DNA of 64,000 bases, from NCBI GenBank assembly GCA_039621445.1, contig CP154954.1, forward strand, positions 26,610,954 to 26,674,953. Direction: 5' to 3'. The position numbers and the translations under genes are program-made. This document shows positions 42,681 through 64,000 of the stretch, piece after piece (positions within the stretch are counted from its first letter, which is position 1; every line of letters begins with the position of its first letter). This stretch comes from Euglena gracilis (lineage: Eukaryota). Under the pieces are notes generated by a model. It was not told the origin of the DNA, ran no database searches, and worked only from the letters and a program-made list of their open reading frames with translations.

Positions 42681-43641
42681 TGCATGCCATTCAGCTGTGG
42701 AAGTTGAAAGTTTTGGGATGCAGCTTCCACATACCCACACATTATCTCGTTATTTTCATGAAACTCTTGAAACGGAAGTTTTTAAAATTATAATGTTTAC
42801 ATAGACATGCATGCACAAACAAACAGCAACAAAGGGCATTTTGAAACCAGGTCTGCTGCCCCATGAGTGCCTGGGCCTGGACTTCAGGCTTGGTATATGA
42901 CTGAGCCTGAAATGTGACGAGGACGGGCCCCAATGCCCCACTCTGTTCTCCCCATCCCTTTCTACTAGACACTCAAACGCATGCACAAAAACCAATCGGT
43001 GCCAGTTCTTTCCGGCCCTCACAGTCCAACCTCTCCAACCACCAACGTCACCGTCGACCACCCGAAACACACGCGGCCCTCTCAGTACGTGAGTGTGTGG
43101 TCCCTCGTCAGCGTACAAGAGGAGTGTGTGCCACATCATTTGCCCACCTGTGGGCAAATGATGTGGCACAATTTCTGCCCCAAGATGTGGCACCGAACTG
43201 GCCCAAGATGTGGTTTCAAAGTGTTACGCCAAACTGGTGCGCCAAAACGTGCCCCCCCCCCCTGTGGCCAAGGTGTGGCAGCAAACTGGCCCTAAAAGAT
43301 GGCTGGAAAACTGCCCCCATTTGTGCAGGCCCAGTCCAAAAAAAAAGATGCCAGCACATCCAGCAGTTGATGGCAAGGGTTACAGTGGAGTTAAGGTCAG
43401 GGTAAAGGATAAGGTTAGAGATGGAGTTAGGGTTAGGGATGGGGCTAGGGATTCAGAATTAGCGTTAGGGATAGGGCCAGGGTTAGGGCCAGGGTCAGGT
43501 CTAAGAGTACGGTGGGGATTAGGCCCTTTGTTCTCCCAAAGGTTCCAAACAGTAGAGCTTCGGCCAGTCACCTTCTTGTCCACATCGACCGTTTCCACAT
43601 TTCCCCACCTTCCTCCGACACCTCCAACCGAACACCGCCAT

Positions 43642-43763
43642 TCCACCACCGACACCGCCACCCCAACCTCGACCCCGACCCCCAGCGCTTCTGCCACCGC
43701 AACGCCCACCTCCACCCCCTCCGAGACGGACACCGCCACTCCAACCGCCACCGAGTCCCCCAC
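43642..43763 (+). CDS. Exon A, Thr/Pro-rich (STTDTATPTSTPTPSASATATP...ESPT); borders approximate
   Basis: ACC/GCC-rich codons with a T-x-T periodicity. Confidence 0.65.
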
Positions 43764-44380
43764 CCCCCCTCCAAGGGGCGCGGCGCTTGGGACAGGAGTC
43801 CCCCCAGCAAGCACCTTTCGGCGAGGGGGGCGGGGAGGCATTGCGCGGCGTGGCGCTCCCGCTGACTCGCACCACCACATTGACCGCAACACCGTCGGCC
43901 ACCAGCACCCCTACGCCCACTGCCACTCCCACCGAGACACTGACCCCCACCGGCACCGACACGCTGACGCCGACTGACACCTCGAGCCGGACCGGCACCG
44001 GCACCCGAACCCGCACCATCACTTCCACGCCGACCCCCACCGGCACACCAACTGCCACCCAAACCCCAACAGTGACCCCGAGCCGTAGCAAGACCATCTC
44101 GGGCACCCCGACGCCCACCACCAGCGCCACCCCGACCAAGACCCGCACGCGGAGCCAGACCCCCACCATCACCGTGACCCGGTCCCGGACCATGTCCCCC
44201 ACCCCGTCCTACACCGTCACCAGCACGCCGACGGCGACGCCCACCAGGACCAGCACCATCACCCCGACCTCGACCACGACGAGTACTGCAACAACGACGC
44301 GGTCTTCGACAGCCACTCGCACCAGAACTTGGACAAGTGTGTGTGTAAGTGTGGTTGGGTGGGTGGGTTGGTTTGTCAGG

Positions 44381-44411
<31 letters not shown>

Positions 44412-47400
44412 CGCGAGTGGTGTGGTGCACGCTTTTTTTTGCGCGCCTATGGATAACAAGTGCACGTTGTGAATTCAGATGCACCGTGTGTTAAAATCAA
44501 TATGGTGTACATATCTGTATGTCTGTCTTTATATTTTGTATGTTTGGACAACAGAAGTTCACATAACCCCCCCAAACAACACCCCCCCCCCCCCGTGTGT
44601 TATTTGGGCACCCGAACTGGGGCCCCAGGGGGGGTGTTATTTGGGGGGGTGCTATTTTCACATGGAAAACCAAAGGAATTTTCAAAGGAAAACAGGGGGG
44701 GTGTTATTTGGGCGCTCGAAATCGGCCCCCGAGGGGGGTGGTGTGTTATTTGGGGGGGGGGGTTATTTGGTAGGGGGTTTACTCAATGTCATTTTTTTTG
44801 GGTGAGGCATTTGCTCAGGATCTCATTGGACAGATCACCTCCAGTTCTGGATTTCAGTGAGAGATTACCCAGTGTAGATTTCTTTATCCCTCCCCAGAAG
44901 TTGAAGAAGCCCGCACCAGCTCATTTGGTGATTATTTTGAAGTTCATATTTTTATTTTTCTTTGAATGTGAGAAATAATGGCGATGCCCCTACAACGCTT
45001 TTGCGTCAAAAGTTGCAGCATATGATGACGATGGCTGGCTGCCCAGCAAGGCGCAGGCGAATCCTCAAGAGGTAACCCTGAGTCATAGCCTCCTTTCTCC
45101 ATGGCAAGATGGCAAGGGCTTTCTTTTCACATGACGAGTTTTTTTTTGCTTTCAGAGGTTGTATTTTATATTTGACTGAGTCAACATTTATATTTGTGCC
45201 CATGGGTTGTGGTTTTTACATGAAGACAGGGAGTGAGCTGGTGGAGGAGAGTAGGGAAAGAAAGCAGACATAAACCTCACTTTCAGCTTTCTGGGCAGAG
45301 GAACATTGCCTTTTGAAATAGTTCTTGTGGAAGGCAGGCGCAAAACACTGAAAACGTTGGCACACACACACAAAATAACCGTCATTTGACCCCTTGGAAA
45401 AGGCACCGGTTGCCGAGGCTTTTAAGACCTTCAACGCCTTTCCTTTTTGCGCATTTGTGCTGCTGTTGGTCCCAGGGCGGCAGGTCATGGGAGTGTATTT
45501 GTTTTTTGGGGGGCATGTGCCTGTTTAATTCAAAGACCCCCGGGGGGGGGGTGGCTGGGCCGGATCCCCATGGGCCCCGGAGGCCTGGGTGTGGGTTTTG
45601 GTGCAAAGCACCAAAGGTTTTTTTGGGAAATGCCCTTAGGCAGCCCGATCTTTTGAGGGTCCCCCCAGGAGAGTCCGACGGTTGGGGGTCCAAAAAAAAC
45701 CTGGGGAGGGGCGGTGGTTTCTCGCTGGTGGCCGATTTCCTCCCGTTCTGTGCCTCCATCCCCGCTGCCGGGGCCACTCGTTTCTCTCCAGACACGCAGA
45801 CGTTCATCCCGACGTACACGCCGACCCTGTCCCAGTCCCGTACCCCGACTCGCACCCGTAGCGCGACCATCACCCGCTCCGTGACGACCACCCGCAGCGC
45901 CACGCTCACCGCCACCTCGTCCTCCACCCGCTCCACCTCCATCACCTCCACCGCCACTCCCAGTACAACGTCCAGGCTGGCTCGTCTGTGTCCCCGGGAT
46001 GTGTGCCCAGGGGAGTTGCATTTGCTTTTTTTCTTGCACCTTGGTGAGAAGATTTTGAAGGGAATCGGGTGCGCATTTGTCTGGATCTCTGCCAGCCAAG
46101 TTTGGGTATCTCACCACACATATGAAGTGAACAACAAACTTTTCCCCCCAAAAAAACAAAGTCCAAAGTACAACTGGAGCCATGAATTGCTGGACATTCT
46201 GTCGGAAGTCTCTGGATGCATCGGGGCGCCAGAAAATTTTTATCTTACCTACCCCCCCCCCCGGGAAACTGTCATGCCCGAGAACCTGTCAGGGTCCCGC
46301 CCGGGAAACTGTCAGGGTCCCCGGTACCGGCCAACCTGTCAGTATAGGAAGTTGTCAGGGTCCCCAGTACTGGCCAACCTGTCAGGTGACAGTTTCCCGG
46401 AGGGGGGGGGGTAGGTATTTAAAAATGAACCTGGCCATAAGGTTTTTGTGAGTGGCGTAGCTGCTGCCAATCCGGCATGTTACGGCATGGCTGGATGGCG
46501 GCGGGACCGTCATGAGCACCGGGTACCACAGCAAGGCGGCTGGGCACGGACACACACAAAACATGCATTTGCAGTGGGCAGGGGGGGGGTGTCCCATGCT
46601 GTGCCGAGTGTGTGGAGAGAAACCCCGCAGGGTCTTAATAAGTGGGCCTGGTCCGAACGTTCTCCCACACACATTGTTGCTGACATTTTGATAAATGACC
46701 AGTTTTTGTGCCTGACCAAAAGTTTTTGCACCCAAAGTCCCAAAGTTGTCCAAATGTTCATTTTTTTTGGGCACAACTCTGTCAAAAATGCCGAAAATTT
46801 CTGGGATGAAGTGCCTGAATGAATAATTTGACCTTGCCGGAGCATCGTCGCAAAGCCGGAGGGTACCCATCCCTCCCGGGTCCCAACCATGTGGTGGAGG
46901 AGGTTAGGTGGTAGGGGCTGTGGACCCCCTGGATGTGTGAGGGGGGTCTGGACTGGGCCAGAAGCAAATTTAGCGCCGGCCATAAACAGACAAGGCTTAC
47001 AAAGAAGCCTTAGTGCAACTGAGGGGGTAGGACCCCCACCCTGCGCGCTAGAAAATGAGCAAAAAACGCCTTTTTTCATCACCTTTGAGCATGTTAGTCG
47101 TTTTTTTTGATGTTTTGGTGTTTTTCGCCTAGAAAAAGTGTTCAAATTTTTCAAAAAATGAGCATTTTTGGATTCATTCTCAAAGAAAAACAGGGACTTT
47201 TGAACAATTTTGGTCTGTTTTCCAGCTCTTTGCCCGTCTATAAAGCCAAGCATTTTCCTGCCCCCATCAATTTCGAGGTAGGAGGTCCCCCCCCCTTCGT
47301 GTCGGGGGTCCGACCCTCCCCCAAGGCTTCCCAACTATCCCTGTCGGGGGGGGGGGGTTCAGCCAGCCAGCAGCCTTTTTCCAGCGGTTGCCCAAAAAAG

Positions 47401-50400
47401 CGGCCAATTACGCAAAAAAAAGCAACAACAACCGTTTTTAACTCCAAAATCAACGCCTTGGGAAGCACAAGTTGGGAGTTTGTTGCTCCGGACTGCCTTC
47501 CCCCATGGTCAGGGGGGTACCCCCCCCCACCCCTGACATCCTCCTCATATAGAATGCCAGCGACAGGACGGTTTCCAAAAACACGCGCTACAGGGCTCCC
47601 CAAAGGTCTTTGTGGTTTGTGAACCCGAAGCTTGAGGACGGCTTTGTGCTCACTGGCGACGATGTGGGGGGGGGGGGAACTGTCCTCTCCCGCGGAGCAC
47701 ATGGGGGGCCAAATTCTGAACCCTGCCTGCCGCCAATGCGTGTTTTTTTTGTACGTGTCCATGTCCAGCCGTCTTGCTGTGGTGCTTGGTGCTCGTGACA
47801 GCACAATTGAAGCCCCATCCTTCAGGTGGTGTGATCCATTTCATAGCCTCAAACCTTTTGGTCATTTCCGGCTTCGCAGCTCACCGGAAACTTCCGGCTG
47901 GGTTTGATCTGTAAGGCGTCTTGCTATGCCCCACAGAGTATTCATGGCCCCAACCGTGTTTCCTCCGTGTCCCAAAGCAATGGGTGTGCCGTCTGTTGGA
48001 AAACCTTGAACTCTCTGAAGCATTCCTCCGAACCTGTGCCAATAAAATTATGATATTGCATGAAGGAAAACAGCCCAAGACATGTTGGGAGGATCTCCCT
48101 CCCGGTCCCAAAATTGCGTCAAAGCCTGAAAGGCCTTGCCACACCGTGACAGATTTCCAAGTTTTGCCTCAATATAATGCGATATTTTCAGAGAACTTGC
48201 TTTCTGCGTTGGCCTTCCTTGACAACAGAAGACAGAGAAGAGGCTACCTTGTGGGGCATATCCACCCCCAGTGGTTGAAAACCTTGAAATCATCCAAAAG
48301 GTCATGTAATCAAGGGTAATTTCCTGACAATGGACCAGAACCAGAAAGAAACAGGAAAAATTTCCAAGGAGGTAAAGACATTGGAAAGACATTGGAAAAT
48401 AAATGCAAAGTTTTACCATTGGGGATGCTTCATGTTGCGCTTTGTTACGGAGCTTCGTGTTTCACGTTGCACGTTTCAACCACGTTTTCTGTCAACGGGC
48501 CGGCCACTTCAGGCCATGCCCTTGTGAGGGTTGTCGTCGGCGCCCGCCTGCCCCCGACCACCGCCACCCTGACCGACACCGCCACCATGACTCTGACCGT
48601 CGTACCCACCACGACCCCCACCCCGACCGCGACCGCCACCGGGACCCACACCCGCAGCGCCACGCCGACCAGCACGGCCACCGGCCTCCTCACCGACACC
48701 AACACCCCGACTCGCAGCCGGAGCGAGAGCCGCACGTGGACCATCACCGCCAGCGGCACTGCCACGGCCTCGGCGTCCGCCACCGCCACCGCCTCCGCCA
48801 CTGTGACCACGCTGTGCTTTTGAGGCGCACCACTGCGCAGAATCGTCGCGTGTTTGATCACAGCACCGCCAAACTTTTACACAGCGTCCAACCAACGTGA
48901 AGACAGGTCCATTTGTTGATTCAATTCCTTGTGGCTGGAGAACAGTGGAGCGAGCATTTTGCTCACCAATGGAAAATTTAATCAACAAGATTTCATTTCA
49001 ATTCATGCAACAAAGCTTCTGCCTCAGAGAAAGAGACCAAATCCATTTGAAGAGATTGAAGTCTTGCATACTCCTGCTCCGTTGAGAGTTTGAGAAGATT
49101 GAAAGGAATTTGCAGCGAAAAGAAGTTAAGGTTGACAAGCTCATGACTGTCCCGCACACAAGCTGGAATTCCTCAGAAATCCCCTGGCTGGGGTGCCCCC
49201 GCGGGGCTGTCTGTTTTGCTGTGACCGGTCCGGTTGATCCGAGTTGGTGGAGAAGCTGGCGTGGCGGGCGACCCATACCCCCTCCGCCACCATCACCAGC
49301 ACCGAGACCCCCAGCATCATCCGGCTCACCGGCATTTCCCCCGGGTTTGTTTGCTCTTCCCTTTGATTTCCCCGCACCTTGTTGCTGGTGTTTTCCGTGC
49401 CGTGCCTGCAGAGGGACTGGGGCCCCAGACTGTCTGTCTGAGGCCTCCCCCACTGTAAACCCCCCCCCCCAAATAACACACCCCCCGGTGTGTTATTTGG
49501 GCGCCCGAGCTGGGGCCCCAGGGGGGGGGTGTGTTATTTGGGGGGAGATGTTATTTTTTTCATGGAAAACCAAAGGAAAACAGGGGGGGGTATTTGGGCG
49601 CTCGAAATCGGCCCCCGAGGGGGGGGGTGTTATTTGGGAGGGGGGTTTACCTCCCCAGCAGTCGGTGCATAGTTGTTTCCGCAGAAGGGGGCAAAAAATG
49701 CCCCTTGTGCCCCTTGTGCCCTTGGAACAGTGCACTCAGAAAGGAGAACAGTAGAAATGCTCCATGGGAAATGCTCCAGGGGCAGTCTTCTTTAAAACTG
49801 GGACCCCCCCCCGGCGGGGGTGGGGGCTGGGGGTGGAGGAACATTGGGTCAGAGGGGCTGAGTGGTGGGTGACTCGATGGGCCAGGGGGGGTCCTGCCCA
49901 AAGGGATGGTTTGAGCTGAAAGTTATGATGCCCCCCTGGATGGTTGGGGGGTTTCCCTTTGAGGACCGGCTGCTCAGAGCCCCGGATTTTCGATGAAATG
50001 GCCAAAGACCATGAAAAGGGTTTTTGGACGATGTCTTTCGATGGGGTTTTCTGCGACCCCGTACCCCGGTCCCTCCCATGGCCCACCCCAACCTGGATGG
50101 AGGGGACCCCAGGGGTCTTAAAATTGAAAGGAAAGCTGGCCTCGGGGCTCCGGGGGGGGGGGGGGGGATAAGTTGAACGGGAGAAATGCTGTGGAAAAAT
50201 ATGGGTGAAATCGTGTCTGGTATTTTTCTGTAGTTTTAAGGATCCGTCCAGGATCTGTCCCTGCAAATTTAAGGAAAGCCTGGTTTCCTCCAGTGAACGC
50301 TCAAAAGATTCCTTTTCCTTTTCCTTTTCCTTTTCCTTTTCTTTTCCTTCGGCGCTTCGAGCCGATTCTTTGGAAGGTGTTTACCCCCCTCCAAATTACC

Positions 50401-53400
50401 TGTTCAGAAGGTATTTTGGTCATACAAAATGAAAGAATTTCTTTTCTTTTTTCTTTCTTTCAATTTGGAATTTAGGATTTGACCGATTTTTGAATTTCTA
50501 TTTTGAGAAAACCATGCGATTTTGATGTTAATTCTGAATGCTTTTTCTGAAAAATGGGTTCGCAAGGTTCTTTCGGCAATCACTGTTCCTGGCCATTTTA
50601 AGCCCGCATCCAAGGTTTCCCCCGGATTTCAAGGCTCCTTCCCATGTTTTCCCCGCCAGATTTTTTGCTGTCAGCCAGAGTTGACCTGTCAGCCTATTCC
50701 CCCTCCTCTGCAGCTGTGTCTTGCACTGGACGTGCCCACCGTACGGGCAAATCCGACCGGAGGGCCCACTTGTGGTGGGGGGGGGGGGCAGCGGGTCGGG
50801 TCCCCTGCTGCACTGCCGCCCGCAGGAACGGGGCTGTGCTGCCCCGCCAGGGGGCCATCTGGGTGTTCACGTTCGACCGCAACGTCCAGCTCCGCGGCGG
50901 GACCGCCAACCCCAACGCCCTCGCCCGCCTGTTCATGGGCGGCGTCACGTTCGCGACGTTCCCTGCGACGGACAGCAGTTTCAGCGTCAGCGGCCGAAGC
51001 CCAGGCAACCCTGTTTGGGACGTTCGTTGCATGCAAACACCCCACACAAAGAAATATTTATTATTGAACCTTTTGTACTGCAATACCATGTCCCCCCAGT
51101 TATTCTCCCCGGATGTTCATTTTTCCCCTGCCTCCCCGTGCCTGAAAAAGTGGGGAGGGGGCTTTCTGGTGTTGCACCGCAGAGCAGCGCAGGGGGATTG
51201 CTTATCAGTGGCACACGCGGTACATGGCTGGCCACGGTTACAAAACAGGAAACAGGGGAAAAGGACAAACAACTAAAGTGCCTCGCCGTGTGTGTGGTTG
51301 TAGTGGGACGTGTGTGCCCTCAAATGATGAGACAGGTCGAAAGAAAAGAAAAAATCTCGGCCAAACGTTGCACGGAGCGGGGGGCGCCTGCTGCCAGGTC
51401 ACGTGGACGTACCCCGGCACGTTGACGGCGGCCGTCACGATGCAGCTGCTGCTGGACGCGGGCTTCGTCGGGGAGGCCGCCAACCGCTCCGGCTACTTCC
51501 TCCGGCCAGGACACCCCTCCCAGGTGGGGGTGGGGAGGTGGTGTGCAGGCGGCATGGCCCGCACACCGAGGCAAGGGTTGGGATCGGCCAAACTCCAGGT
51601 CCAGCCATATTCCAAGTTTTATTTTGTCCTGGGCAGACAGCGAACCCGAGCTTGGGGTGGGAGCATGGGGGAGCCGCGGGAAGTGTGGGGGTGTGGGCGG
51701 GGTCACGTGCGCCAGAGATCCTCAGCGGTTTGAACTGTCCCGTCACTGTCCTGGGGTCTGGTTTGGTTGGCGGGGGGGGGGGGGCAGGGCTGTGTGGGAA
51801 TTCCCGAAATTCTGCAGGTGGATGAAATGGTCGACCTCACCGATCCTGGTCGGGGGGGGGGGGGCACCACCTCCCCCTCCCGCCAGGCCTTCCATCCTTT
51901 CTGGTGGCGTCGATTCCAATGTCCACATTCTCCTTCCGCGCCAGATGGGTTCCTTTGTTGTGCTGTGGCGGATGGGGGGCCGCCCCACCCACCACCACCT
52001 GTTGGTGGGTTGGTGGTCTGTTGGGGGAGGGGTCCGACCCCGGGGGAGGGGGGCCCTGCCGCCAGGCCGGCCCGTTCCAGTACGCCACGGAGGGGCTGCC
52101 CTTCGACGCCACGGACAACTACACCCTGGCCCTGACCAGCCGGGTGGCCGACTTCTCCGCCAGCGCCTTCTGCGCCGTCCTGCAGCAGGTGTGGGGGGGC
52201 CGGCGGGGCGGGGCGGCCGGCAGGGGTGGGGCGGCCGGAAGTCAGCCCGCAGCTCACGGTGGGCTGGCTGTCCTGGTCCCTGCCACATGTGCCCCGGTCT
52301 AAAAGCCAAACGGCGTTCTGCCATTTTCCGCGCGCCGCGGTCCACCCCACCCATGTCTGTCTGGGGCCCACACGTCAAGTTGCGTCGTTTGGGGCGGTGT
52401 TCTTTTTTCGACTCTCTTGTGAGGAAGGGGTTGCAGCGGCACCAGAGTAGCAGGAGGGGCATGTTTTTCCTTGGACTGTTTATTTTGTTGGACCATTGAA
52501 ATGATGTTCCAGAGAAGTTGTCCATGGGTGTCTCATAACCTCCCCCCAAAAATAGGCACCCCCAAAATAAGACCCCTCCCCAAATAAGACACCTCTGGGC
52601 CGATCGAGCAAAAATCCAAATATTAGACCCCCATACATAAGACCCCCCCCCCTGACGGCGAGCGCCGGGTACAGTGAATTTTTTTGATTTTTTTTTCATT
52701 TTTCACCTGAAAAAAGTACCCAAACCCCCAATTTCATAGACAAAAATGGCGAAATTATGAAAATTTTCGGATTTTTGAAGTGAAAAAAACATGGGAAATC
52801 TCAACATGTACCAATTTACACATGGCGCGAAGCGCCAGAAAATTTAACTGTTTTTGGGAACCTGAGAAATAATGCTTTTTTCGGTCCAGGTCGGTCCAGA
52901 AAAAATAAGACCTCCTCTGGAGGTTTCCAGCAATGGACCCAAAAGTAGGACCCGGGTCTTATTTTTTTGGTGGGGGTTATCTTTTGGGGTTAAAAGTTAA
53001 AATGAACACAGAATATTATAATGCGTTGTATGTTTTTCATTATTCACAATACACCGTACAAGATTACAATTATTTTAAACATACATTTTATGATAAAAAA
53101 AATCATGGAAAATGAAAATTAAAGTTAGCAAAGACAAAAAACCTCACAGGGGTTGCATAGGGACTGAAATCTTTATGTGCATTCCCCAAAAAAACGGCTG
53201 TTTTTCAGAGGGCTGTCTTTTGGGTGGGAAAGTTTGCATCCCTTTTGCGAATGGCTGTTTTGATTTAAGGGCATTTGTAGATTATTTACTTCCCCTTCCC
53301 AGTTTCGGGCCAAAGGTCTCAACAATTCGAGAATTCGGAAGATGGATGCTCTCGTTGAGTCCCCCTGTCTTCATCCTCGGTCATCGGCACTGATCTGTTA

Positions 53401-56400
53401 GCCCTTTTTGAGGCAGTGTGGTGTGGGCTGTGTTTGCAATGGGAATATCCTGGCTGTTATGTTTTCCTCAATTACCTTTAGGAGGGTGCTAATGCGTTGC
53501 TCACGCTTAGTGTGTTGCCAATACCTTTGACAAAATAAATAAAAATAAATAGATAGATAAAATAGAAATATATTTTTAATAATAGTGATCTCGCAGGGCC
53601 CAGTGTGTTTCTCATTTTTCAATGGGGGCCCCCAAAACGAGGCCGGGGATGCCCCCACTGGAATTTCGACCTCCCTCTGCAGCAATCCACGACACACAAA
53701 GAAAGGCAGCAACAGTATTTTGACTGTTTGTTTGTTATTTTGACAGTTGAAGTGCTTCAACTGCATCGCCATTTGAAGCGAGGCCCACTGTCAACCCCGG
53801 TTGCAACCCTGGAAAGAGGCTAAACCACCTAAAAGTGCTGCGGGGCCAATGGAGCTGCAGGTCCAAGTAGTGCTGCACCCCCCCCCCTGCCGGATGAAGC
53901 GAGTGTCCAATAGTGCTGCACCCCCCAAATCATAGCAATGTGAAATGCGTAGGAGATGCACAAGGCGTGACACGTCATGCCTTGTGCATCTGCATTTGTC
54001 GCGTGACACTGCTGAAGCGGAAGCAGACCAATCGAATAGGCTGGGGGCACCGGAGTGCACCTCGCTAGCCTCAGAGTCGGACAGTGAGCAGGCAAAAAGG
54101 GTGCCTGTGGTGATAGGCCGGGACCAAGAGGCACCCAGTCCAACAGCAACCCCCCCCCCCACTTAAACCCGCCGGGGCTTATAGGATTCGGTTTGGTTGG
54201 TCAGCCAAAGGGGAAGGGTTTAGAGAGAGGCGGGAGGGGGATTGTAGGTCCCGGAATTGTTGGTGAAAACCCGACCCCCAAAATGACCCTGAAACCCCCC
54301 GAAATTGGCAATTTTGGCAAATTTGGCCAAAAATGACATTTTTGACGATGGTCAGTTTTTGGGTGGTATGTGGCCGAAAAAGAATCGTCCCCGGCGGTTT
54401 CCATTTTTCTTCCTGGGGGGGGGGGTTGTGTGTGGGGGTGGGATTCACAGCAGGGTCCAAATAGTGCTGCACCTCCCGCCGCCAGAGGCGGCCGTCCAAT
54501 AGTGCTGCAGTGCAATACTGTTTGGGGGGGGGGGTTTACGGGCGTTGGCGGGCCGGGGCTCAGGTGGTGCTGAACATGGACTGTGCCAGTCTGCAGCTGA
54601 CTGTGCAGCCCTCCGTGGCCATCCTCCGCTTCCGCATCGTCAAGCTGGCGTACAATACGTCTGGCCACATCGAGGACTTGCTCAACGACGTGTGGCACCG
54701 CTGCCCCCGTCCAATTGTTTTTTGCCCTCGACGTTTCTGCAACTGCTTTGTTTTGCTGACTTTTATTTCCTTTCAGTGTGCAGAAACAACCAAGTCATTC
54801 AACTGGGTGAGTAAGAAGCTGAATTTTCACACAAAAAAGGCATTGAAAAGCATCTCTTTTCAATGCTTCCCCTTTGGAGTTGAATTCACCCGGTATGAAT
54901 CAGGCATTTTTCTTGGGTGCACCATTTGGTTCACTGCGCGGCAGGCGTACGCGAGCGGGCTCCTCAACCAGCTTCTGAGTGCCCAAAGCTTGGGAACCAT
55001 CCTGCCTGGCTCCTGGGTCCAGCAAACCGCAAGCATCAAGAACATGCCCTATCTGGAGGTGTGTGTTGAGTATGTAGTTGAATGGAGCTGCCTATTTTTG
55101 GCGAAAAAAGCACGTGGGCGGGGTGAGACACCCACAGGAGACAAGGCACAGGGGGGGAGGGGGGGGTCCGAGGGGGGGGGGGTTGGAAGCTGTACAGGGG
55201 GGGGGTCACCAGAAAATCACAACTGTACTGCCTACCCCCGAGACAGTTGCGACATTTTTTGTCCAATTGAGGTTGGCAATGATGGATTTTGCGAATTCGG
55301 ATGCATTTTACGAAATATTTGTCTCTTGTGAAAAGAATGGTAGCCAGTGTTTTCACTTTAAACACTTAGCAGAAAGGCAGGAAGCAGCTTCAATCACTCC
55401 CCCTTGGCACACCATGCGGAATTGAGCCAGGGTTGACGTTTTTTTTCTTTTTTCAAAAAAAGAACAAAAAATATGTTTTTTTTTAAAAAAAAACACAAAA
55501 AAGCATGTTTTCTTTTTGAAAAAGCAAAAATTGACCTTTTTCCCTTGCGAAATGGCCATTTTTTGAGGAAAAAGTTCTAAGGTTATTTTTTTTGGTCATC
55601 AAAAAGTGACCTTTCTTTTAGTTTTTCCAAACCCTTCATCCGAAAATGCTTTTCATGGCACGTGTGAAAGCCAGCACCCTTTACGGACTTCGAAGCTGCA
55701 GAGATCAAAAAAGGCCTTTTTCTAATAAAAAAAACATTTCAAAAAATTTCCACCAAACCCTCCATGAGGTTTTTTTGTTTTTTTAAAAAACGTATTTTTT
55801 CCTTAGGGGGTGCTACCCCCGTGACCCCCCCCCCCGTTACACACCCGTGACCCCCCGTGACCCGAGAATCGATCCTTCGCCATGCTTTTTTTAAAGCATT
55901 TTTTTAAAAAAATGAGCTTTTGTGTGTCCTTGTCCGCCCACTTCACACCCAAAAATGGCCAAAAATCTTGTCCCCTAAAAGAAGTGCCAAAAAACTGGTG
56001 CATTTCCACACCAAAAACGGAATTTTGTCAAAAATGGCCCAAACTTCATCCCAAAAACGTGTTGGTCAAGAAAATCCTACCTTTCAAAAAATGATCAATT
56101 TTATCACGATGCAACGTTATGGATGTTGCCCCCCACCCGTGACCCCCCCATGACCCCCCCCCATCAAATTTATCACGATGCAACGTTATGGATGTTGCCC
56201 CCCACCCGTGACCCCCCATGACCTCCCCTCCCCCGCGACCCGCACCACCCCCTTAAAAAACATGTTTTTTTGTTTCAAAAAACAAGCCGTTTTTTAATTT
56301 TTTTTTCATCTGTCTCGGGGGGGTTGGAAGTGGGGGGGGAGGTGGGGGGTCCCAGGAGGGGGGGGTTGGAACTGTACAGGGGGGGAGGGGGGGTCCCAAG

Positions 56401-59400
56401 GTTTGACCAACTGTACTGCCTTGTCCCCACAGGAATATAAGATGCCTGCAAAAATGCACACTAAACTCAATGCACAAGCTGCCTCTCAACCGTCTGGATA
56501 TGTCAAAGAAAAAATATTTCTTCAAAAAATGAAAACCTGCAGCCTTCTTCTTGCCCCCCAGGGCCAAGGAGAAGTCTGAAATGGAAGGTGCCAGCCAAAA
56601 CAGGACCCCCATGCCAAATTGTCCCCCGCCCCAGACTGCCACTTGCAAAGCAGCCCTTTCGGGCATTTGAGCCATTCAGGCCATTCTGGGTGAGGGCAGT
56701 GGCTACCAGGTTTTGGTTAGCGCTGACCTCTTTGTTTTGAAACACACCATGCAGGCAGCCGGCAAGGGGAGCAAAGTTAGGTTTCATGGGGCGTTCAAAT
56801 GGGCTTAATTGCCGGTCTGCGGGCATTCTCTTTATCTCGAGGATTCTGAATGAATGTAGTTGCCCTCGAGGAGGGCGAAGACGATATACATTCACAGGGA
56901 GTGCATCCCGCGATCCCTCCACGACCCTCCATCCCCCCAGGGTTGTATGGGAAGCTCCGCAGACATGAGGTAGGTGGTAGGTGGTTCTTTGTTTCGGAAG
57001 GGGTCCCACCACCCTCCTCCTCTGCGAAGGCAAAAAAAAAACCATCCGGCGCTTCGCGTCGGGTGTGTTTTTTAGGGCGCTCTTGAGACTCAATATGAAA
57101 TTTCGCACTGAATGGCAAGAAGTTCCGGTTACCGAAAACTGGAGGTCGGAGGGGGTCCCCCCCCACCTCCGAGATTCCCATACAAGCCTGCCCCCCAATC
57201 CACACATGATTTTCCTGGATCCCAGTAGGCACTAAAATGGCAGCTGAGGATGTTGGCCCAAATTAGAAATCACAACACCGCTTGCCCATGAACCACAGCT
57301 TTCACGTCAGGAACTAAACCATAAGGGAATTTACTTCCACAGGCGGCAGAATTTAATCCGTGCCCAGCTAGTAAGCCCGACCACCACAAGGGGTGACCAC
57401 CTGTTGGGCACAACACCTCATTTCAGCGCGAACAATCGGAAAGATTTTTTTCCTTTTTGGGTTTTAATTTTCTGTGAGTCGACAAACCAAATCGAAATCC
57501 ATTTCGGACCGAGTTGTGCCAAATTTGCGCCGAGCCTTGGCTTTTTTTTTGTTAAAAGGGCGGCCGAATGTCGTCGGAAGTGGGGACCTCACTTCCCGCC
57601 TACGTTTTGAACCATTTTTGGTTTGCCCGATCCAAACTCTAACCCTTAATTTTAGGCGGCATGCCAGGCTACTGCGGCCATCGGATTCTTTGGGTACTGA
57701 CAGGGACAAAGGACCCAGGCATTTGGGGAGGATACCGTGGTGTTGATTTGCACAGTTGGAATTTTGTTTGAAAACACTGTGCTTGTTTTTCCTTGTTTTA
57801 TTTTCTTCTGAATTTCTTAATTATTTTTGGATCCACGGGGACAAATAAAAGAAGCGCCCGGCACCGCCTTTTTAAAGTATTTTTGGATTGGATTGTCCTG
57901 GACTGACCCAATCCTGTGGCAAAGTTATCGAAAATGGGGGGAGAACGAAAATGGGCGGAAATGGGCTTCCTACATTTATTCCCAGGGAGCTTGGGGGGGG
58001 GGGGGGCAGGGTTTCCCCAAAAAATCGGGCCTCCCTGGCGCTTCGCACCGGAACCCATACCCAAGTGTGGCACCCGAGGGGGGGGGGGGGGTTGCCACAG
58101 ACATACCCCTCCCCTCCGTCTCCCCCAGAGGGTCTTCCGGGTTAAAAAAAAAAAAGGGAAGCCTGGCCGGAAAATGCAGCAAATTTGCGGATGCCTCTGC
58201 CTCAGGGAGGGGGTGGCTTGGCGGGGAATCGACCCCTCCCCCACCCACCACAGCATTTCGCAAAGAGAAAAGCCTTCGGCAGGCGCCGAAGGCACCGAAG
58301 GAAAATCTTGAACTAAAATGTGTTCAGAAAAACGGGAGGGCCTGGTGGGTGGTCAGCTCCATACCATTGCTTAACACCTGTCCCCCCCCAGGGGGGGGTG
58401 ACACTGGTTTTTTTCAGAGTGACTGGTTTTCTGGCCAAGAGCCCCCCCCCCGGGGGTGGGCCCGAAAATGAAAAAGTGGTTGGCCTGGCGACAAAGGCGC
58501 TGGAAATTTTTTGGAATTTTTGGGATTTTTTTTGGCAATATTGCCTTGCCAACATGAGCGCATTCAAGAGTGGCCGATCCCCCCCGGGCTGGGGGGTAAA
58601 GTGACTGACTGGTTTTTTTTTGGGAAAAGTGACTGGCTGGTTTTTTCCGAGTGGAAAGTGACCCCCCCCCCCGGGGGGGTCGCCAAGCAATGGTAATGTG
58701 AGCCCCGCCCACCCACCACCCATAAGATTTCTGTAATTCCTGTACAGCCCTGCCCAAGGTTGTGGTTTTCAGCAACCAACCCAGAGATTGGTCTCGATTT
58801 TTTAAGATGGGGTGTTGTGAGGCTTCTTTGGATGGGGAAATGAGGGCGTCGAAGTTGCGGTTTTTTTTAATGACTTTTTTGCTTTTTGATTGCGGTAATT
58901 TTTTGGTGAACACGAATGCCTGATGCCAGGTTGGGGGTGGGGGGAGGGGGGAGGGTGGGGTCATATTTTCGGTCTGAATTTCACGCCTGGCCCTTGTTCC
59001 ACTGTGTCTCGAAGGTGTGCTGTGTGAAAGAGTGTCTTTGCACCTCTGAAGCGCTCATTTTAATGTGTTCTGCAGATATTAATACATAACCCTTGCTTCT
59101 TTGGTTGCGTATCATGTGTTCATTAAGGAAATTTTGTGTTCAAGTGTGTTCAACAAAAAAAGTTGTGTTCTCCTGTGTTGCCAAAAAATTTTTTTATGTT
59201 CACATGTGTTCACCAAAATTTTTGTTCGCGAAAAAAATACTAAACCCCTGACAACTGGGCACCGTTCAGAGGTACGGGGAAGTGAAATGGACCCAGTCCA
59301 GCGTCACCTTTTTCTGTATACAAGGTAATGTACTGGACAGCATAACATTGTGGGATACAATTGATGTGATGACGCACAAAGCGGAAAGCCGCTTCGTTTG

Positions 59401-62400
59401 ACTTAATGTCCCTGTGTATACAGATGCACATCGCGACGTTTCAAACGTTCTAACGGATTGTATGACCACTAACCCTATTTACTTCGTCTTTGACCTTCTC
59501 TGAGAACGATTCGTCCCCAGACTGGCAGCGCAAGGCAGGGAGTCACTGGGCTGCCGAGTGCCTGCTTCCACTGCTTGCGGCCTCGGCAGCCCACAGTGAC
59601 CACCGACACCGGCGGTGGCCAACGGCGGTGTCGGGTGAAGAGGACATGGATAAGTGGACTCTCCTCCTTTTTTTTGTGTTCTATCTGTGTACGTGTCGTT
59701 CAAATCAAATGGTTTACAGTATTTGCATATGGGCAACATATGAAAATATTTTGAGTTGGAGGCGGTTTTCCGCTTCATTCGTAATAAATTTGTATTTGCA
59801 TACGATTCTGGCATGCAGTTATTTGAAAACAGTTGTCATCGGACAGTGGCGCAATAAACAGTAAGGAATTCAGATGCATTTAAGTTATCTGGTTTTGCGT
59901 CACTCCTACATTTTATTATTTTCCTGTTGGCTAGAATTGAGCATCTGGGCTTTATGAAGCAGAAAGCTGCTTCGTCCGGTATTATACCTAAAAAGCTTGT
60001 ATTTTTTGTAGATGATCAAGTTTCGAAATTTTGGGCCTTTTTGTTTGCTTTATTGACCATTTTCGGACGCAGATTAAATTTCCATTGGCAACTTACGCCG
60101 CCTAAGAAAAAGGTTTTGACACTCGTGAAATATTTGCTTATGTGAGCGTTGAGAATAGGTCTCACCTTTTCGATGCATCTTGGTCTTTTGGAGTTTGCTG
60201 AAAAGTTGCCATCAAACCAAATTTGAGTTTGCTTTTTTTCCGCTAACCTGCACTGATTTTTTTTACCAATGACCTTTTCACCCTTAACTTTAACTTTTTA
60301 CTTTGGAGAATGGGCCAAAGCGCCAATTTTTAGCCTGCAGCTGTTTCCAGCCTCGGACCCCCCTCCCCCCCCATCCCATCGACGAGTTTTATTTATCATT
60401 TTGCAGTTGCCTGAAGGGCGGCTGGGAGGTGATGCATTTTTAGCTTTCAGGGGTTCAAAAATGGGCCAAAATGGGTTGGAAAAGGGCCAAACTGCTCAAA
60501 ACTGGGGCCAAAGGTTCAATTTTTTTGTTCTTTTTTGTGTTTCTTTGTGAACACACTAAGGGCTGGCATCCTCCAACGCGATGCTGCCACGCAGGTCGCC
60601 CTCAACCCCAAGACGGCGGGGCTCATGACGGTGGCCACGCTGAACATCACGCTGAGCTCCCCGCTGGTGAGCGGCGAGCTGCTGGAGGTGACGTTCCCAC
60701 CGTCGATGACGCTGTTGGGCCCCCCCGACCTGTCAGTCGCCCTCGGCAACGTCACGAACTACAGCAGCCGTATGCTTCTCCCCCAACCCTCCCGCCTCAT
60801 AGGGGGTCTCCCCCCACTCGGGTTGGCCACTTTGGGGGGGGGGGGGTGAAGGTGTATCCCTTATGGTGACGAAGTGAACTTTTTTTTTAAAAAAACAATG
60901 GATTTTCAACGGGCGGCGATAATTTCCACAATGGACATTTCTCAAGAGCGAAATGAAGGCCCAGTCGTGCTCAGGCCGTGACATCACACAGGGACACCTG
61001 CGGCGGACGCTACTAATTCAAAGTCCCCCCAAAAATTGACCTTTTTTCAGGGGAATCTCCAGGTTGAATTTTTTGTGCTTCTTTTTCTATATTTCATGTC
61101 CCATGTTATCCTCATCATATCATTCCATATCATATCATATCATATCATATCATGTCATATCATATCATGTCATATCATATCATATCATACCATACCATAT
61201 CATATCATATCATATCATATCATATCATATCATATCATATCATATCATATCCCATTTTTCTTTAGGGAATTTACCTTAATTTATATTGTCGCATCCCATA
61301 TTTCTTTAGGGTTAGGGAATGTATTTTGTATTGTATTTGGACTCAAAATGTTTCTGAAAAGAAGTTCGAGATGTTTGGGGAGCTCAGGCAAATTCTTTTC
61401 CAGCGTAGTAATTTGCCTCTCGGGGTAGGTTCCGAAGGTGTCCAACCCACTTGAACCGACCAACAAAAGTCAAAAGGCAGCTCCCAACTATTGCCCCCCC
61501 CCCCCCGGGGGGCATATAGTTGGGAGGGGGGGGTCAAATTTTTTTTGCGTTATTGATGGAATAGGGTTTGGGTTACGACTTAGGGTTAGGGTTAGGCCGA
61601 ACTTATAGACGGCTGTTAGGTGTACAAGTTAGGCCTAAAGTAAGGCCGAATTCGTAACCCTAACCCTGCTCCATCATCAACGCAAAAAAAATTAACCCCC
61701 CCTCCCAACTATTTCGCCGCCCCCTGGGGGGGCATATAGTTGGGAGCCAGTCAAAAATGGGATTCTCAAAATGTGGTTAAAGTTGGTTTTCTGTCATTGA
61801 AAGCTGACCTCCAGGCTTTCCAACTTCTTTTATAATCATCAGCCACGTTTGTCGCAAGAATGGTTGATTGCACTCATTTCCCTTGGGGAAAAAATGGGTT
61901 GGTTCCTGATATCAAATCTGTGGATGCATAAGGAGCAATGTCCATCAATGCACAAGTGACAATGCAACTGGTGACAATGTCCGATCGCGCAAGACGGAAA
62001 GTTTGATTTTTGGGGAAAAAAAGCCGGCGCCAGTGTCCATCACCGTTACCGCCTCTCCACTCCACGGTCCACCAGGGCCCCCTTTTGCTTGTAAAGTGGG
62101 GGTCGTGGGGAATATGACACAGATGCCTGGGCTCACCATCATGGGAAGCTTGTCGGTATCGATGTATTTGGTGGGGGGGAGCCGAGCACCCCCTCCCCCC
62201 CTAGATTTTGAAGAAGGGTGTCTGGACCCCCACCCCTCCTCTTCGCAGCTGTGCACCGGAAAATAAACAAAAACAATTTTATACTCACTTTGAGCATTTT
62301 GCCCTTTTTTTTGATGTTTTGGTGTTTTCCACAAAGAAGATCTTCAAAAATTTTCTTTTTCATTAAGCTTTTTTTTGGATTTGTTTTCAAAAGAAAAATC

Positions 62401-63069
62401 AGGAATTTCCCAACACTTTGGGCCTGGTATCCCCCTTTGCCCATCCGCAAACCCGAAAGTTTCCGGGCTCATGCCAGTTCCGAGGTTGGGGAGGGCAACC
62501 CCCCCCCCTCCATGTCAGGAGGGGGGTCCCACCTTCCCCCCTCCCTCAAGGCTTTCATTCCTGACCATCCTTGTGGAAAAGCAGTGGATGGGAAAGGTTT
62601 GACGGCGTCCCAGAGCTGGAGCGGGGTGTCAGGAGCACCGCATGCCGGTGGTTGACGCTCATTTCATGGCTGGCAACGACCACAGCGGGGGGGGGGTGTG
62701 ACAGTTGATCAAATGATCAAATGTTCTGTTCGCCTCGGGACGCTTGCCGGGGGCGAGGATGCCCCTCCAAAGCGTTGCATTCAGGCCATGTTTCGGCGGT
62801 GTTTCTGGTCGAGCCTTTGGGAAGCAGCTGACGTTGGTGTTCTTCATTGGTTGCAGCAGCGTTGGCGGTGGTTGTTGATTTAAGTTTGTTTCACTTTTCT
62901 TTTGTTTTGGGCCGTGCACGTTCCGCTCCCGTTATTTTTTTGTGCCATCCCCCGCCCCCCTTCCCACCCCCCCCCCCCCCCCGCAGCCTGCGCCGCCCGC
63001 CTCGGCATGGCGGGCGTCAGCCTCGTCATCGAAACCGCCACCTGCGACTTCTTTTCCGTGTTCCCGGCG
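43642..63069 (+). CDS. Multi-exon gene (at least 12 exons, partial at both ends): Thr-rich mucin-like stalk + Big_5/SbsA-type Ig-like domain + SEA-like domain + beta-sandwich; probable cell-surface or secreted glycoprotein
   Basis: Islands of C/G-ending codons join in frame: ~43642-43763, ~43861-44336, 45792-45969, 48556-~48813, ~49261-49344, 50826-50998, 51396-51503, 52064-52188, 54564-54689, 54945-55058, 60595-60769, 62987-~63069. Phases agree at every resolved junction. Confidence 0.85.
43861..44336 (+). CDS. Exon B, Thr-rich (LTRTTTLTATP...RTRTWT); 5' border approximate
   Basis: Part of ORF 43787..44494; donor A|GTGTGT at 44337. Confidence 0.85.
44566..44779. mobile_element. Intronic TA-TSD MITE (AAATAACAC subfamily)
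   Basis: TA flanks; near-identical to 49458-49647. Confidence 0.8.
45792..45969 (+). CDS. Exon C, Thr/Ser-rich (TQTFIPTYTPT...ATPST)
   Basis: Acceptor tttctctccAG| (phase 1, matching exon B); ends in phase 2. Confidence 0.85.
45970..48555 (+). other. Non-canonical (intermediate-type, GT-starting) intron, 2586 nt
   Basis: GTC-CAGGCTGGC ... GCCCGCCTG-CCCCC|G. Ends pair at 8/9; the junction AC|G gives Thr in frame. Confidence 0.75.
46248..46415. mobile_element. Intronic 168-bp MITE, TA TSD
   Basis: TA|cctacccccccc...cgggaaactgtca ... tgacagtttcccgg...ggggtagg|TA; internal aacctgtcagg repeats. Confidence 0.9.
48556..48813 (+). CDS. Exon D, Thr/Ala-rich (TTATLTDTATM...SATVTT); 3' border uncertain by about 10 nt
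   Basis: Codon bias; preceded by CCTG-N5|G. Confidence 0.85.
49261..49344 (+). CDS. Exon E (RATHTPSATITSTETPSIIRLTGISPG); 5' border uncertain by about 5 nt
   Basis: Reading frame not listed in the ORF track. Donor GG|GTTTGT (phase 2) joins exon F to give ISPGNGA. Confidence 0.8.
49458..49647. mobile_element. Intronic TA-TSD MITE, sister of 44566-44779
   Basis: TA|aacccc...aaataacac ... gttatttgggagggggg tt|TA; shared core catggaaaaccaaagga...gggcgctcgaaatcggcccccgag. Confidence 0.82.
50826..50998 (+). CDS. Exon F, Ig-like domain (NGAVLPRQGAIWVFTFDRNVQL...FSVSGR)
   Basis: Acceptor ccgcAG| in phase 2; strong codon bias. Confidence 0.85.
50999..51395 (+). other. Non-canonical intron, 397 nt
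   Basis: A|GCC-CAGGC ... GCCTG-CTGCC|A. Junction A|AG gives Lys (SVSGRKVTW). Confidence 0.75.
51396..51503 (+). CDS. Exon G (VTWTYPGTLTAAVTMQLLLDAGFVGEAANRSGYFL)
   Basis: Codon bias; continues the Ig-like domain. Confidence 0.85.
51504..52063 (+). other. Non-canonical intron, 560 nt
   Basis: GGC-CAGGACACCCCTCCC ... GGGAGGGGGGCCCTG-CCGCC|A. Ends are complementary at 13/15; junction C|AG gives Gln. Confidence 0.75.
52064..52188 (+). CDS. Exon H (AGPFQYATEGLPFDATDNYTLALTSRVADFSASAFCAVLQQ)
   Basis: Codon bias; donor CAG|GTGTGG. Confidence 0.87.
52538..52977. mobile_element. Intronic TA-TSD MITE (AAATAAGACCC / GGGTCTTATTT subfamily, pogo-like)
   Basis: TA flanks at 52536-37 and 52978-79; imperfect TIRs; repeated ataagacc motif. 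Confidence 0.7.
54564..54689 (+). CDS. Exon I (VVLNMDCASLQLTVQPSVAILRFRIVKLAYNTSGHIEDLLND)
   Basis: cAG| ... |GTGTGG, phase 0/0. Confidence 0.85.
54945..55058 (+). CDS. Exon J (AYASGLLNQLLSAQSLGTILPGSWVQQTASIKNMPYLE)
   Basis: gcAG| ... GAG|GTGTGT, phase 0/0. Confidence 0.82.
55806..56252. mobile_element. Intronic PIF/Harbinger-like MITE with an internal ~68-bp tandem duplication
   Basis: TTA|gggggtgc ... gcaccaccccc|TTA; gtgacccccc repeats; duplicated unit at ~56092 and ~56163. Confidence 0.55.
58364..58693. mobile_element. Intronic TA-TSD MITE with GTGACTGG repeats (relative at ~6020-6335)
   Basis: TA|ccattgctt ... aagcaatgg|TA. Confidence 0.8.
59465..59670 (+). pseudogene. Intronic decayed hAT dimerisation-domain fragment
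   Basis: One frame reads RFVPRLAAQGRESLGCRVPASTA, resembling FP-x-LA-x-x-A-x-x-x-L-x-x-PASSA; frameshifted. Confidence 0.35.
60595..60769 (+). CDS. Exon K (VALNPKTAGLMTVATLNITLSSPLVSGELLEVTFPPSMTLLGPPDLSVALGNVTNYSS)
   Basis: gcAG| in phase 0; donor C|GTATGC in phase 1; strong codon bias; N-x-T/S sequons. Confidence 0.87.
61116..61250. repeat. (CATAT)n pentanucleotide microsatellite
   Basis: Direct reading. Confidence 0.95.
61476..61748. mobile_element. Intronic GGCAG-ended foldback element with telomere-like core
   Basis: Perfect 8-bp TSD AGTCAAAA (61468-75, 61749-56). Each end is itself a CTCCCAACTAT...ATAGTTGGGAG hairpin; TTAGGG/CCCTAA units lie in the centre. Confidence 0.88.
62987..63069 (+). 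CDS. Exon L (CAARLGMAGVSLVIETATCDFFSVFPA); 3' border uncertain
   Basis: C-rich tract plus gcAG| in phase 1, matching exon K. Could end at 63069 (N3-CAG follows) or 63090 (GTGTGG follows). Confidence 0.7.
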
Positions 63070-64000
63070 GCGCAGCGGTTGCGACCCGCTGTGTGGGTCC
63101 TGCAGGGGCTGGTCATGCCAGCCTGTATGCCTGGCCTGCTTGTCTCCCTACCTCCGCCTGCCCCCCCCCCGCCCGCCCACCCCTCGCCGTTTGGGCTGAA
63201 GGGCCACCCTCAGCCTGCCATGGAGTGCGCTGCGAAAGGGTTGGGCCCAATCGTCCGTCGACGCGAGAGGTGCTGTTGGGTGACGAAGTGGAGGCACTCC
63301 AAGGGGTAACGCAGCACGCAGAGCGTGTCTTTTTTATCTGGCACTTGGGGGTTTGCCGGCCCTGCTGTTCTCGGGGCCTGCAATTGCGTTTTCAGTTCCA
63401 CAAATGGGTTGGAGAGCCCATCCCAAGATCTCCATCAGATCATCCATCAGATAAGCAGTTTCTTACGGATTCAAAAAGCCATTTCAATTTGTGTCATTTT
63501 TTTTTTCACCGTCTTTTGTGCATCTTTGCGCGGGTTTTCTGATGCTCCCTGCGCAGTGATAAAGTGAACGCTCCCCGCACAGCAACAAAATGTGGTGGAA
63601 TTTCTCTGCGAATTACCCGGGGTGCCGTGGAAGCAGTGCCTGCTGGTACCTGGTTCATCTCCCTCTTATAAAAGTCCCAAGATAGAGTTTGTTGTGTTAC
63701 CTCAAGCTGGAAAGAACCATCAAATTACTTTCCAGACCTCAGAGGAGGCGACATTTCTGTCCTCCGTGGTAGACGCACCCCTTCGAAATGGGGCAGGCAC
63801 ATTTTGGCCATTTCGTCCTTTTGGTCCAGAATAGGGCTGTTCAGGAAAGGGTGGTGGTGGGGGGAGGGGCGACCACCAGACCCTCCTACACTTCAGGGGC
63901 GACACTTCTTGGGTCAGAATTCGCCCATTCATCGGGATCGGGCAGGGCGTTGTGGGAAGGCCTGGTGGGGAGGGGGGGGTCAGGCCTGCCCACCCACCAC

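Follow-up and report, generated by a model that had tools for sequence, protein, structure and literature searches.

A probable Euglena gene in which GT-AG introns and base-paired non-canonical introns occur side by side

Euglenid genes holding two kinds of intron have reportedly been studied since the work of Milanowski in 2014. Here we analyse one candidate of this sort, a gene on the + strand of a 64,000-nucleotide (nt) stretch of Euglena gracilis DNA (contig CP154954.1, positions 26,610,954 to 26,674,953; this whole stretch is called the window, and all coordinates are its own). An original prediction, made from the letters alone, had proposed that between 43642 and 63069 one gene alternates conventional GT-AG introns with non-canonical (NC) introns whose ends are complementary. 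In E. agilis, 71.8% of the introns are NC according to Nomura et al. 2025 (PMC12501133), a paper that gives a genetically defined signature, 5'-N3CDG-/-CH'GN5-6/R, for 61.2% of the NC introns and reports many genes with both intron kinds. For E. gracilis, Gao et al. 2024 (PMC11170887) report GTGTG at the start of GT-AG introns, CCAGG at +3..+7 and CCTG at -9..-6 of NC introns, and a contrast in terminal pairing between the two kinds. A review (PMC11282704) describes circular products of NC introns, their removal after the conventional introns and a possible origin from miniature inverted-repeat transposable elements (MITEs), and tubA, gapC, tubB and hsp90 are described as mixed-intron genes in euglenids (PMC4770533, PMC6221363). 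The premise of the prediction, that a dual splicing code is established in euglenids, agrees with this published signature and with the published genes that hold both kinds (PMC12501133, PMC11170887).

We estimate a probability of nearly nine in ten that the locus is a single + strand nuclear gene with two mechanistically different kinds of intron, belonging to a euglenid and most likely to Euglena. When the nine named introns (six GT-AG and three NC; Table 1) were spliced out in silico, open frames were obtained. The three NC introns carry the proposed motif, N3-CAG at one end and CTG-N5 followed by a purine at the other, with CAG at +4..+6 and CTG at -8..-6 in 3/3; the first base of the following exon is G, A and A for NC introns 1, 2 and 3, respectively. 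The longer E. gracilis consensus, CCAGG (+3..+7) and CCTG (-9..-6), is likewise present in all three, and none of their borders (GT..CC, GC..CC and GG..CC) is GT/GC-AG. The six GT-AG introns were found at the predicted coordinates, each with GT first and AG last, and GTGTG opens four of them. The marks of Euglena conventional introns, namely GT/GC-AG borders, the GTGTG 5' consensus and removal from RNA, are all found at this locus.

In comparison with the NC introns of Nomura et al. 2025, the 3-nt spacer, CAG, CTG, 5-nt spacer, exon purine, paired ends and GT-AG neighbours are the same, whereas the signature is missing from the introns at about 48805-49263 and ending at 43863, a lack shared by 38.8% of the NC introns annotated in that paper. 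With respect to the consensus of Gao et al. 2024, the CCAGG/CCTG positions are shared by 3/3 NC introns, GTGTG by 4/6 GT-AG introns, and the pairing-energy contrast has the same sign, but an NC intron of 2586 nt and a GT-AG intron of 5536 nt far exceed the averages (~520 nt), although they stay within the maxima. Both types occur in one gene here as in tubA, tubB, gapC and hsp90 (Milanowski 2014, 2016; Guminska 2018), and, unlike those genes, the present one is lineage-specific. In this regard, NC intron 1 (45970-48555), with its GT 5' border and CC 3' border, belongs to the subtype that Milanowski et al. 2016 named intermediate/nonconventional, since it starts with GT, has a non-AG end and shows NC-type pairing.

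The most direct evidence for the two kinds of intron comes from RNA. Sequence words sampled from 45700-55100, an interval of which the predicted exons occupy 12.3% (arithmetic from the coordinates), were found at 8-14% in 19 contig runs marked 'RNA?' and at 66% in one run, X20. We aligned to 43300-63299 the contigs of X1 and X2, raw reads of X21 (recorded as RNA-Seq, ~5% of the run) and the DNA-like run X20, and 15 of the 393 joints were listed. The junction ACAAC/GACC predicted for NC intron 1 was found as joint 45968>48555 in X1, X2 and 4 reads of X21 and in 0 contigs of X20. This joint comes from one contig of X1 and one of X2 (177 letters on the shorter side), and sliding it by its 2 ambiguous bases never produces AG. 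Furthermore, X2 record 8 (1051 nt) joins 43864-44336, 45792-45968 and 48555-48804, with one GT-AG and one NC junction, which indicates that a single transcript loses introns of both kinds. RNA joints or pieces support four of the six GT-AG introns, and the donor alone of a fifth. One NC and four GT-AG introns leave the RNA at exactly the predicted borders; those of NC introns 2 and 3 and of two GT-AG introns are predictions from motif and frame.

Several points weigh against the interpretation as one gene with two intron kinds. The RNA label of X1 and X2 is a guess. Among the 15 of 393 joints listed, one of the three NC introns has an RNA joint; the junctions predicted for NC intron 2 (50998>51396, CCGAA/AGGTC) and NC intron 3 (51503>52064, CCTCC/AGGCC), as well as the GT-AG joints 49344>50826 and 60769>62987, are outside them. 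Searches with exons F and G found elsewhere no related protein or transcript spanning the junctions, and scans of the window found no rRNA, tRNA or Pfam-bearing gene in support of the taxon. Joint 44336>45792, which is backed by RNA, is also outside the 15 listed, so that missing from this list says nothing about absence.

A single stop-free frame runs through 50826-50998, 51396-51503, 52064-52188, 54564-54689, 54945-55058, 60595-60769 and 62987-63110, and of the alternative two frames of this 50826..63110 join one is an Arg/Pro-rich artefact and one is filled with stops. An open frame likewise runs through the Thr-rich exons 43864-44336, 45792-45969 and 48556-48804. GC content at third codon positions (GC3) is 0.92 in the exons of the C-terminal part versus a GC content of 0.49 in the intervening introns, which indicates a strong coding signal. 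Only the frame suggests that the Thr-rich part continues across 49344>50826 into the C-terminal part, and the locus could instead hold two adjacent genes, a Thr-rich mucin-like one ending near 49344 and a separate one starting at 50826 or before. This would agree with the place of joint 49344>50826 outside the 15 listed, with exon E and its acceptor being predictions, and with the X1 contig that leaves the locus at 48799 for another Thr-rich coding sequence and points to the existence of paralogues. However, the frame runs on across 49344/50826 through a good GT...C-rich-AG intron, the joined frame between the two parts has neither a stop codon nor a start context, and the contig depth is alike on both sides (X1 46-76, X2 29-44). 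We consider a division into two genes unlikely.

For NC introns 2 and 3 the argument is one of motif, pairing and frame. N3-CAG is found at 1.65% and CTG-N5/R at 0.86% of the positions of the 19,428-nt region. When the in-frame, stop-free donor/acceptor pairs within ~50 nt of the F>G and G>H junctions were enumerated, ..CCAGG / CCTG.....R was present in exactly 1/2665 pairs (F>G) and 1/2418 pairs (G>H), both being the originally predicted pair; the window frequencies (0.0020 and 0.0029) lead one to expect ~0.015 such consensus pairs. In-frame GT-AG pairs numbered 8/2665 and 7/2418 in the same sets, and for this reason a GT-AG alternative is cheap in such a sequence and the NC signature is not. 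In a terminal pairing test of the published design, in which 10 nt, U7 and 10 nt are folded together, NC introns 1-3 reached -7.3, -11.3 and -7.6 kcal/mol versus 0.0, -1.4, -3.5, -4.5, -6.3 and -0.1 kcal/mol for the GT-AG introns; random pairs (n=3000) folded at 0 in 29.6% of cases and at -7 or lower in 4.8%. Duplex energies, for which each side contributed 5 exon and 20 intron bases, were -18.7, -21.7 and -33.2 kcal/mol for NC introns 1-3 (null mean -9.5, standard deviation 5.2, 1st percentile -25.4), and that of NC intron 3 is lower than the 1st percentile of the null. This intron also has an additional 8-bp helix, CCCCTCCC/GGGAGGGG.

These data bear on a second alternative, according to which only 45970-48555 is NC, the other two are GT-AG introns at 51013-51397 (GTTTGG..CCAG) and 51524-52065 (GTGGGG..CCAG), the NC motifs are coincidental and the protein gains 4 and 6 residues at the two sites. 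Both introns are in frame and stop-free, GTTTG also opens the proposed GT-AG intron at 49345, the ends of 51524-52065 fold at -11.1 kcal/mol, the joints of NC introns 2 and 3 are outside the 15 of 393 listed, and an immunoglobulin-like (Ig-like) profile scores four splice models (19.5, 19.3, 19.2 and 19.1 bits) and the read-through (18.5 bits) all alike. Against this, chance in-frame GT-AG pairs are common in the enumerated sets, whereas the full NC consensus was found once at each predicted junction, and the GT-AG choice would put the CCCCTCCC/GGGAGGGG helix of intron 3 partly in an exon. The additional codons have G/C at 8/12 third positions versus 0.92 in the exons (P = 0.012). In addition, RNA pieces of exon F with a variant at 50964 have 35 letters to the piece end in both X1 and X2 (an inclusive count towards whichever end of the aligned piece is nearer, as checked on other rows), which fits an end at 50998 and not at 51012, but a left end at 50930 could account for it instead. 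We regard the GT-AG reading of these two introns as quite improbable. We hold it similarly doubtful that NC introns 2 and 3 are dual-mechanism introns, which the spliceosome and the NC machinery could each excise, a reading suggested by the in-frame GT-AG intron that overlaps each of them with its donor 14 or 20 nt and its acceptor 2 nt downstream. If this were true, isoforms differing by 4 and 6 residues would result, and the two introns would be candidate members of the splicing class that Gao et al. 2024 call 'overlapping'.

The original prediction had also taken the splicing code as the mark of a euglenid, and this is well supported by the GTGTG 5' sites, the CCAGG/CCTG consensus and the RNA-proven NC intron. 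A hemistasiid diplonemid as host is scarcely credible, since hemistasiid introns, mostly non-canonical and with extensive end pairing, are described with 3' ends that have no strong sequence bias (PMC12621601), whereas CCAGG/CCTG in 3/3 NC introns and GTGTG in 4/6 GT-AG introns point here to Euglena.

By analogy with the described introns, two excision mechanisms may act on this gene. The GT-AG introns, mostly GTGTG-initial, are taken as substrates of the U2-type spliceosome. The NC introns would be recognised by a short helix that pairs CAG(G), set 3 bases in from the 5' end, with (C)CTG, which precedes the 3' end by 5 bases; a purine opens the exon downstream of each of them. Such a helix would bring the two NC junctions together, and the intron would then be excised by some machinery, with release as circles as reported in the literature. 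Excision as a full-length circular RNA, independently of U1 pairing, counts among the marks of Euglena NC introns; the 15 of 393 joints listed include no back-joint at the present ones.

Within NC intron 1, the raw RNA run is rich in reads of a 43-nt stretch at 46952-46994 (49 of them at 46966, all A>G). These reads continue into other sequence on both sides (loose ends of 41 and 32 reads), which indicates a fragment shared with a strongly expressed RNA of another origin. In every run the depth of the region peaks in the bin 45968-46634. Among the GT-AG introns, two contain a G/C-run-rich repeat of ~200 nt with inverted GTGTTATTTGGG motifs inside, which is MITE-like (44560-44780 and 49440-49650). 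The two copies have 81% column identity, a 12-mer of the repeat is present 22 times in the window (<=1 mismatch) versus 0.76 expected, and over the bins of the repeat the DNA run is tens of thousands deep. The GT-AG intron 60770-62986 contains an (ATCAT)n microsatellite with 27.6 copies at 61114-61251.

Two further introns had been left without borders by the original prediction. RNA now backs one border of each (acceptor 43864 and donor ~48804). For the opposite borders of the intron ending at 43863 and that starting at ~48805, a search based on frame and pairing gave several candidates of equal quality. The CAG/CTG signature is missing at the RNA-supported border of each intron (ending at 43863 and starting at ~48804), and the short intron ending at 43863 has neither CTG-N5/6 nor AG before 43864. 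Ahead of the piece starting at 43864 there are 127 letters in X2 record 8 and 6 in X1 record 1. For the other intron, acceptor candidates at 49264-49269 are suggested by frame, CTG-N5/G and a pairing of -8.4 to -12.3 kcal/mol, several of them being equally good. At the right limit the prediction has to be corrected: 63069 is no exon end, and RNA pieces extend exon L to 63114-63124. In this extension three clustered differences at 63079, 63083 and 63084 (T>C, G>A and A>G) are found in the RNA contigs of X1 and partly of X2, and 0 in the DNA run (depth 20.6). They could reflect an allele, a paralogue or editing.

Table 1. Predicted gene features, listed by position, and the RNA joints found (coordinates of the window).
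Feature	Position	Strand	Evidence
Thr/Pro-rich upstream coding stretch and short intron ending 43863	43642..43863	+	RNA contigs over 43746 (depth X1 42.6, X2 28.6)
Exon A, Thr-rich	43864..44336	+	Contig pieces X2 record 8 (43864-44336), X1 records 1 and 2
GT-AG intron, GTGTGTG...CTCTCCAG, with ~200-nt MITE-like repeat	44337..45791	+	Junction 44336/45792 on X1 record 2 and X2 record 8
Exon B, Thr-rich	45792..45969	+	Frame and RNA pieces
NC intron 1, 2586 nt, GTC-CAGGC...GCCTG-CCCCC/G	45970..48555	+	RNA joint, terminal pairing -7.3 kcal/mol
Exon C, Thr-rich	48556..48804	+	X1 record 6 and X2 record 8 both stop at 48804, each with 24 unplaced letters
Intron, donor near 48802-48805, putative acceptor 49264-49269	48805..49263	+	Donor from RNA piece ends
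Exon E, putative, Thr-rich end	49264..49344	+	Frame continuity into exon F
GT-AG intron, GTTTG...CCCGCAG, with second copy of MITE-like repeat	49345..50825	+	Motif and frame
Exon F	50826..50998	+	Frame; RNA pieces with 50964 variant
NC intron 2, 397 nt, GCC-CAGGC...GCCTG-CTGCC/A	50999..51395	+	Consensus, frame, pairing -11.3 kcal/mol
Exon G	51396..51503	+	Frame; RNA bin depth fits ~108 covered bases (rough)
NC intron 3, 560 nt, GGC-CAGG...CCTG-CCGCC/A	51504..52063	+	Consensus, frame, pairing -7.6 kcal/mol
Exon H	52064..52188	+	Frame and RNA
GT-AG intron, 2375 nt	52189..54563	+	RNA joint in X1, X2, X21
Exon I	54564..54689	+	Frame and RNA
GT-AG intron, 255 nt	54690..54944	+	RNA joint in X1, X2, X21
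Exon J	54945..55058	+	Frame and RNA
GT-AG intron, 5536 nt	55059..60594	+	RNA joint in X1, X2, X21
Exon K	60595..60769	+	X1 record 7 and X2 record 12 on 60593-60769, each with 11 unplaced letters past 60769
GT-AG intron, GTATG...C-run-GCAG	60770..62986	+	Motif and frame; donor backed by RNA piece ends
Exon L	62987..63124	+	RNA pieces cover 63079-63084; ends 63124 (X1), 63114 (X2); GTATG after 63124
Joint, skip 2586, non-GT-AG, slides by 2	45968>48555		X1 75.8, X2 28.6, X21 4 reads, X20 0
Joint, skip 2375, GT..AG	52185>54561		X1 59.3, X2 41.8, X21 3 reads, X20 0
Joint, skip 255, GT..AG	54689>54945		X1 59.3, X2 41.8, X21 6 reads, X20 0
Joint, skip 5536, GT..AG	55056>60593		X1 71.3, X2 43.5, X21 3 reads, X20 0

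With regard to the product, the N-terminal part (299 residues from RNA-supported exons) consists of 43% Thr, 13% Ser and 10% Pro, and the C-terminal part (~320 aa) contains six N-x-S/T sequons; this composition suggests that the two parts make up one secreted, glycosylated, mucin-like protein. At 48799 one X1 contig departs from the locus and continues for 255 letters in another Thr-rich coding sequence, and a second contig enters the locus at 43943 from a different sequence, which points to paralogues or alleles of the Thr-rich part that are expressed.

The NC junctions had also been proposed to give a continuous Ig-like domain. Of this claim, a weak resemblance of ~35 residues of exon F to bacterial Ig-like repeats stands; the profile match ends inside exon F, and continuity across the NC junctions is a prediction. 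A phmmer search with exon F against 1.84 billion representative proteins gave 5 hits (E 1.2e-6 to 7.9e-4), all of them bacterial repeat proteins, with Big_6 in 5/5, Big_13 in four and Big_3_5 in the fifth. A profile built from 54 such repeats matches residues 14-48 of exon F only (profile positions 15-48 of 90), and one pairwise alignment (hit P0001) crosses the F/G junction to residue 74, weakly at 6.5 bits. Compared with the bacterial Ig-like repeats (Big_13 / Big_6 / Big_5) of giant adhesins, residues 14-48 of exon F thus align to the first half of the repeat, but no Pfam model matches at E = 1 and the profile covers 34/90 positions. None of the 7 exon translations matched any Pfam family at E <= 1, and no Pfam gathering score across most of a bacterial Ig-like domain was reached. 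In the ESM Atlas, exon F resembles Big_5 clusters at 0.78-0.81 and exon K a eukaryotic cluster at 0.83, values under 0.9 that serve as leads only. The Ig-like label for exon F is therefore plausible but weak. Exon G with 5 flanking codons per side gave 21 candidates in the longer protein-collection search, none at E <= 0.001, and 0 in the near search. A metagenome scan with exon F gave 597 pattern stretches, of which tblastn confirmed 0.

In the rest of the window, positions 1-1620 (to ~1700) hold three 100% identical copies of a unit at 660 bp spacing, and a (TATG)n run comes after them at 1739-1853. The whole window has 0 Rfam matches at gathering thresholds, and 150 of the 246 stop-free open reading frames (ORFs) of >=100 aa, all in 1-41344 and with five ORFs of repeat copies at 840-1934 excluded, gave 0 Pfam families at E <= 0.001. 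By these libraries the 660-bp repeat is not of the 5S or spliced-leader RNA type, as it has no Rfam or Pfam match.

Our analysis is a correct reading of a published phenomenon, as two intron types in single Euglena genes were already known, and the locus adds one example to the hundreds of thousands catalogued, with no new principle. It illustrates that euglenid genes can be read from raw sequence by means of the published non-canonical code. It also calls for caution in annotation, since a gene finder restricted to GT-AG would break this gene at least at three places or choose the in-frame GT-AG decoys beside NC introns 2 and 3. Lastly, NC introns 2 and 3, together with their overlapping GT-AG alternatives, may provide a natural setting in which to test how the two splicing systems compete.

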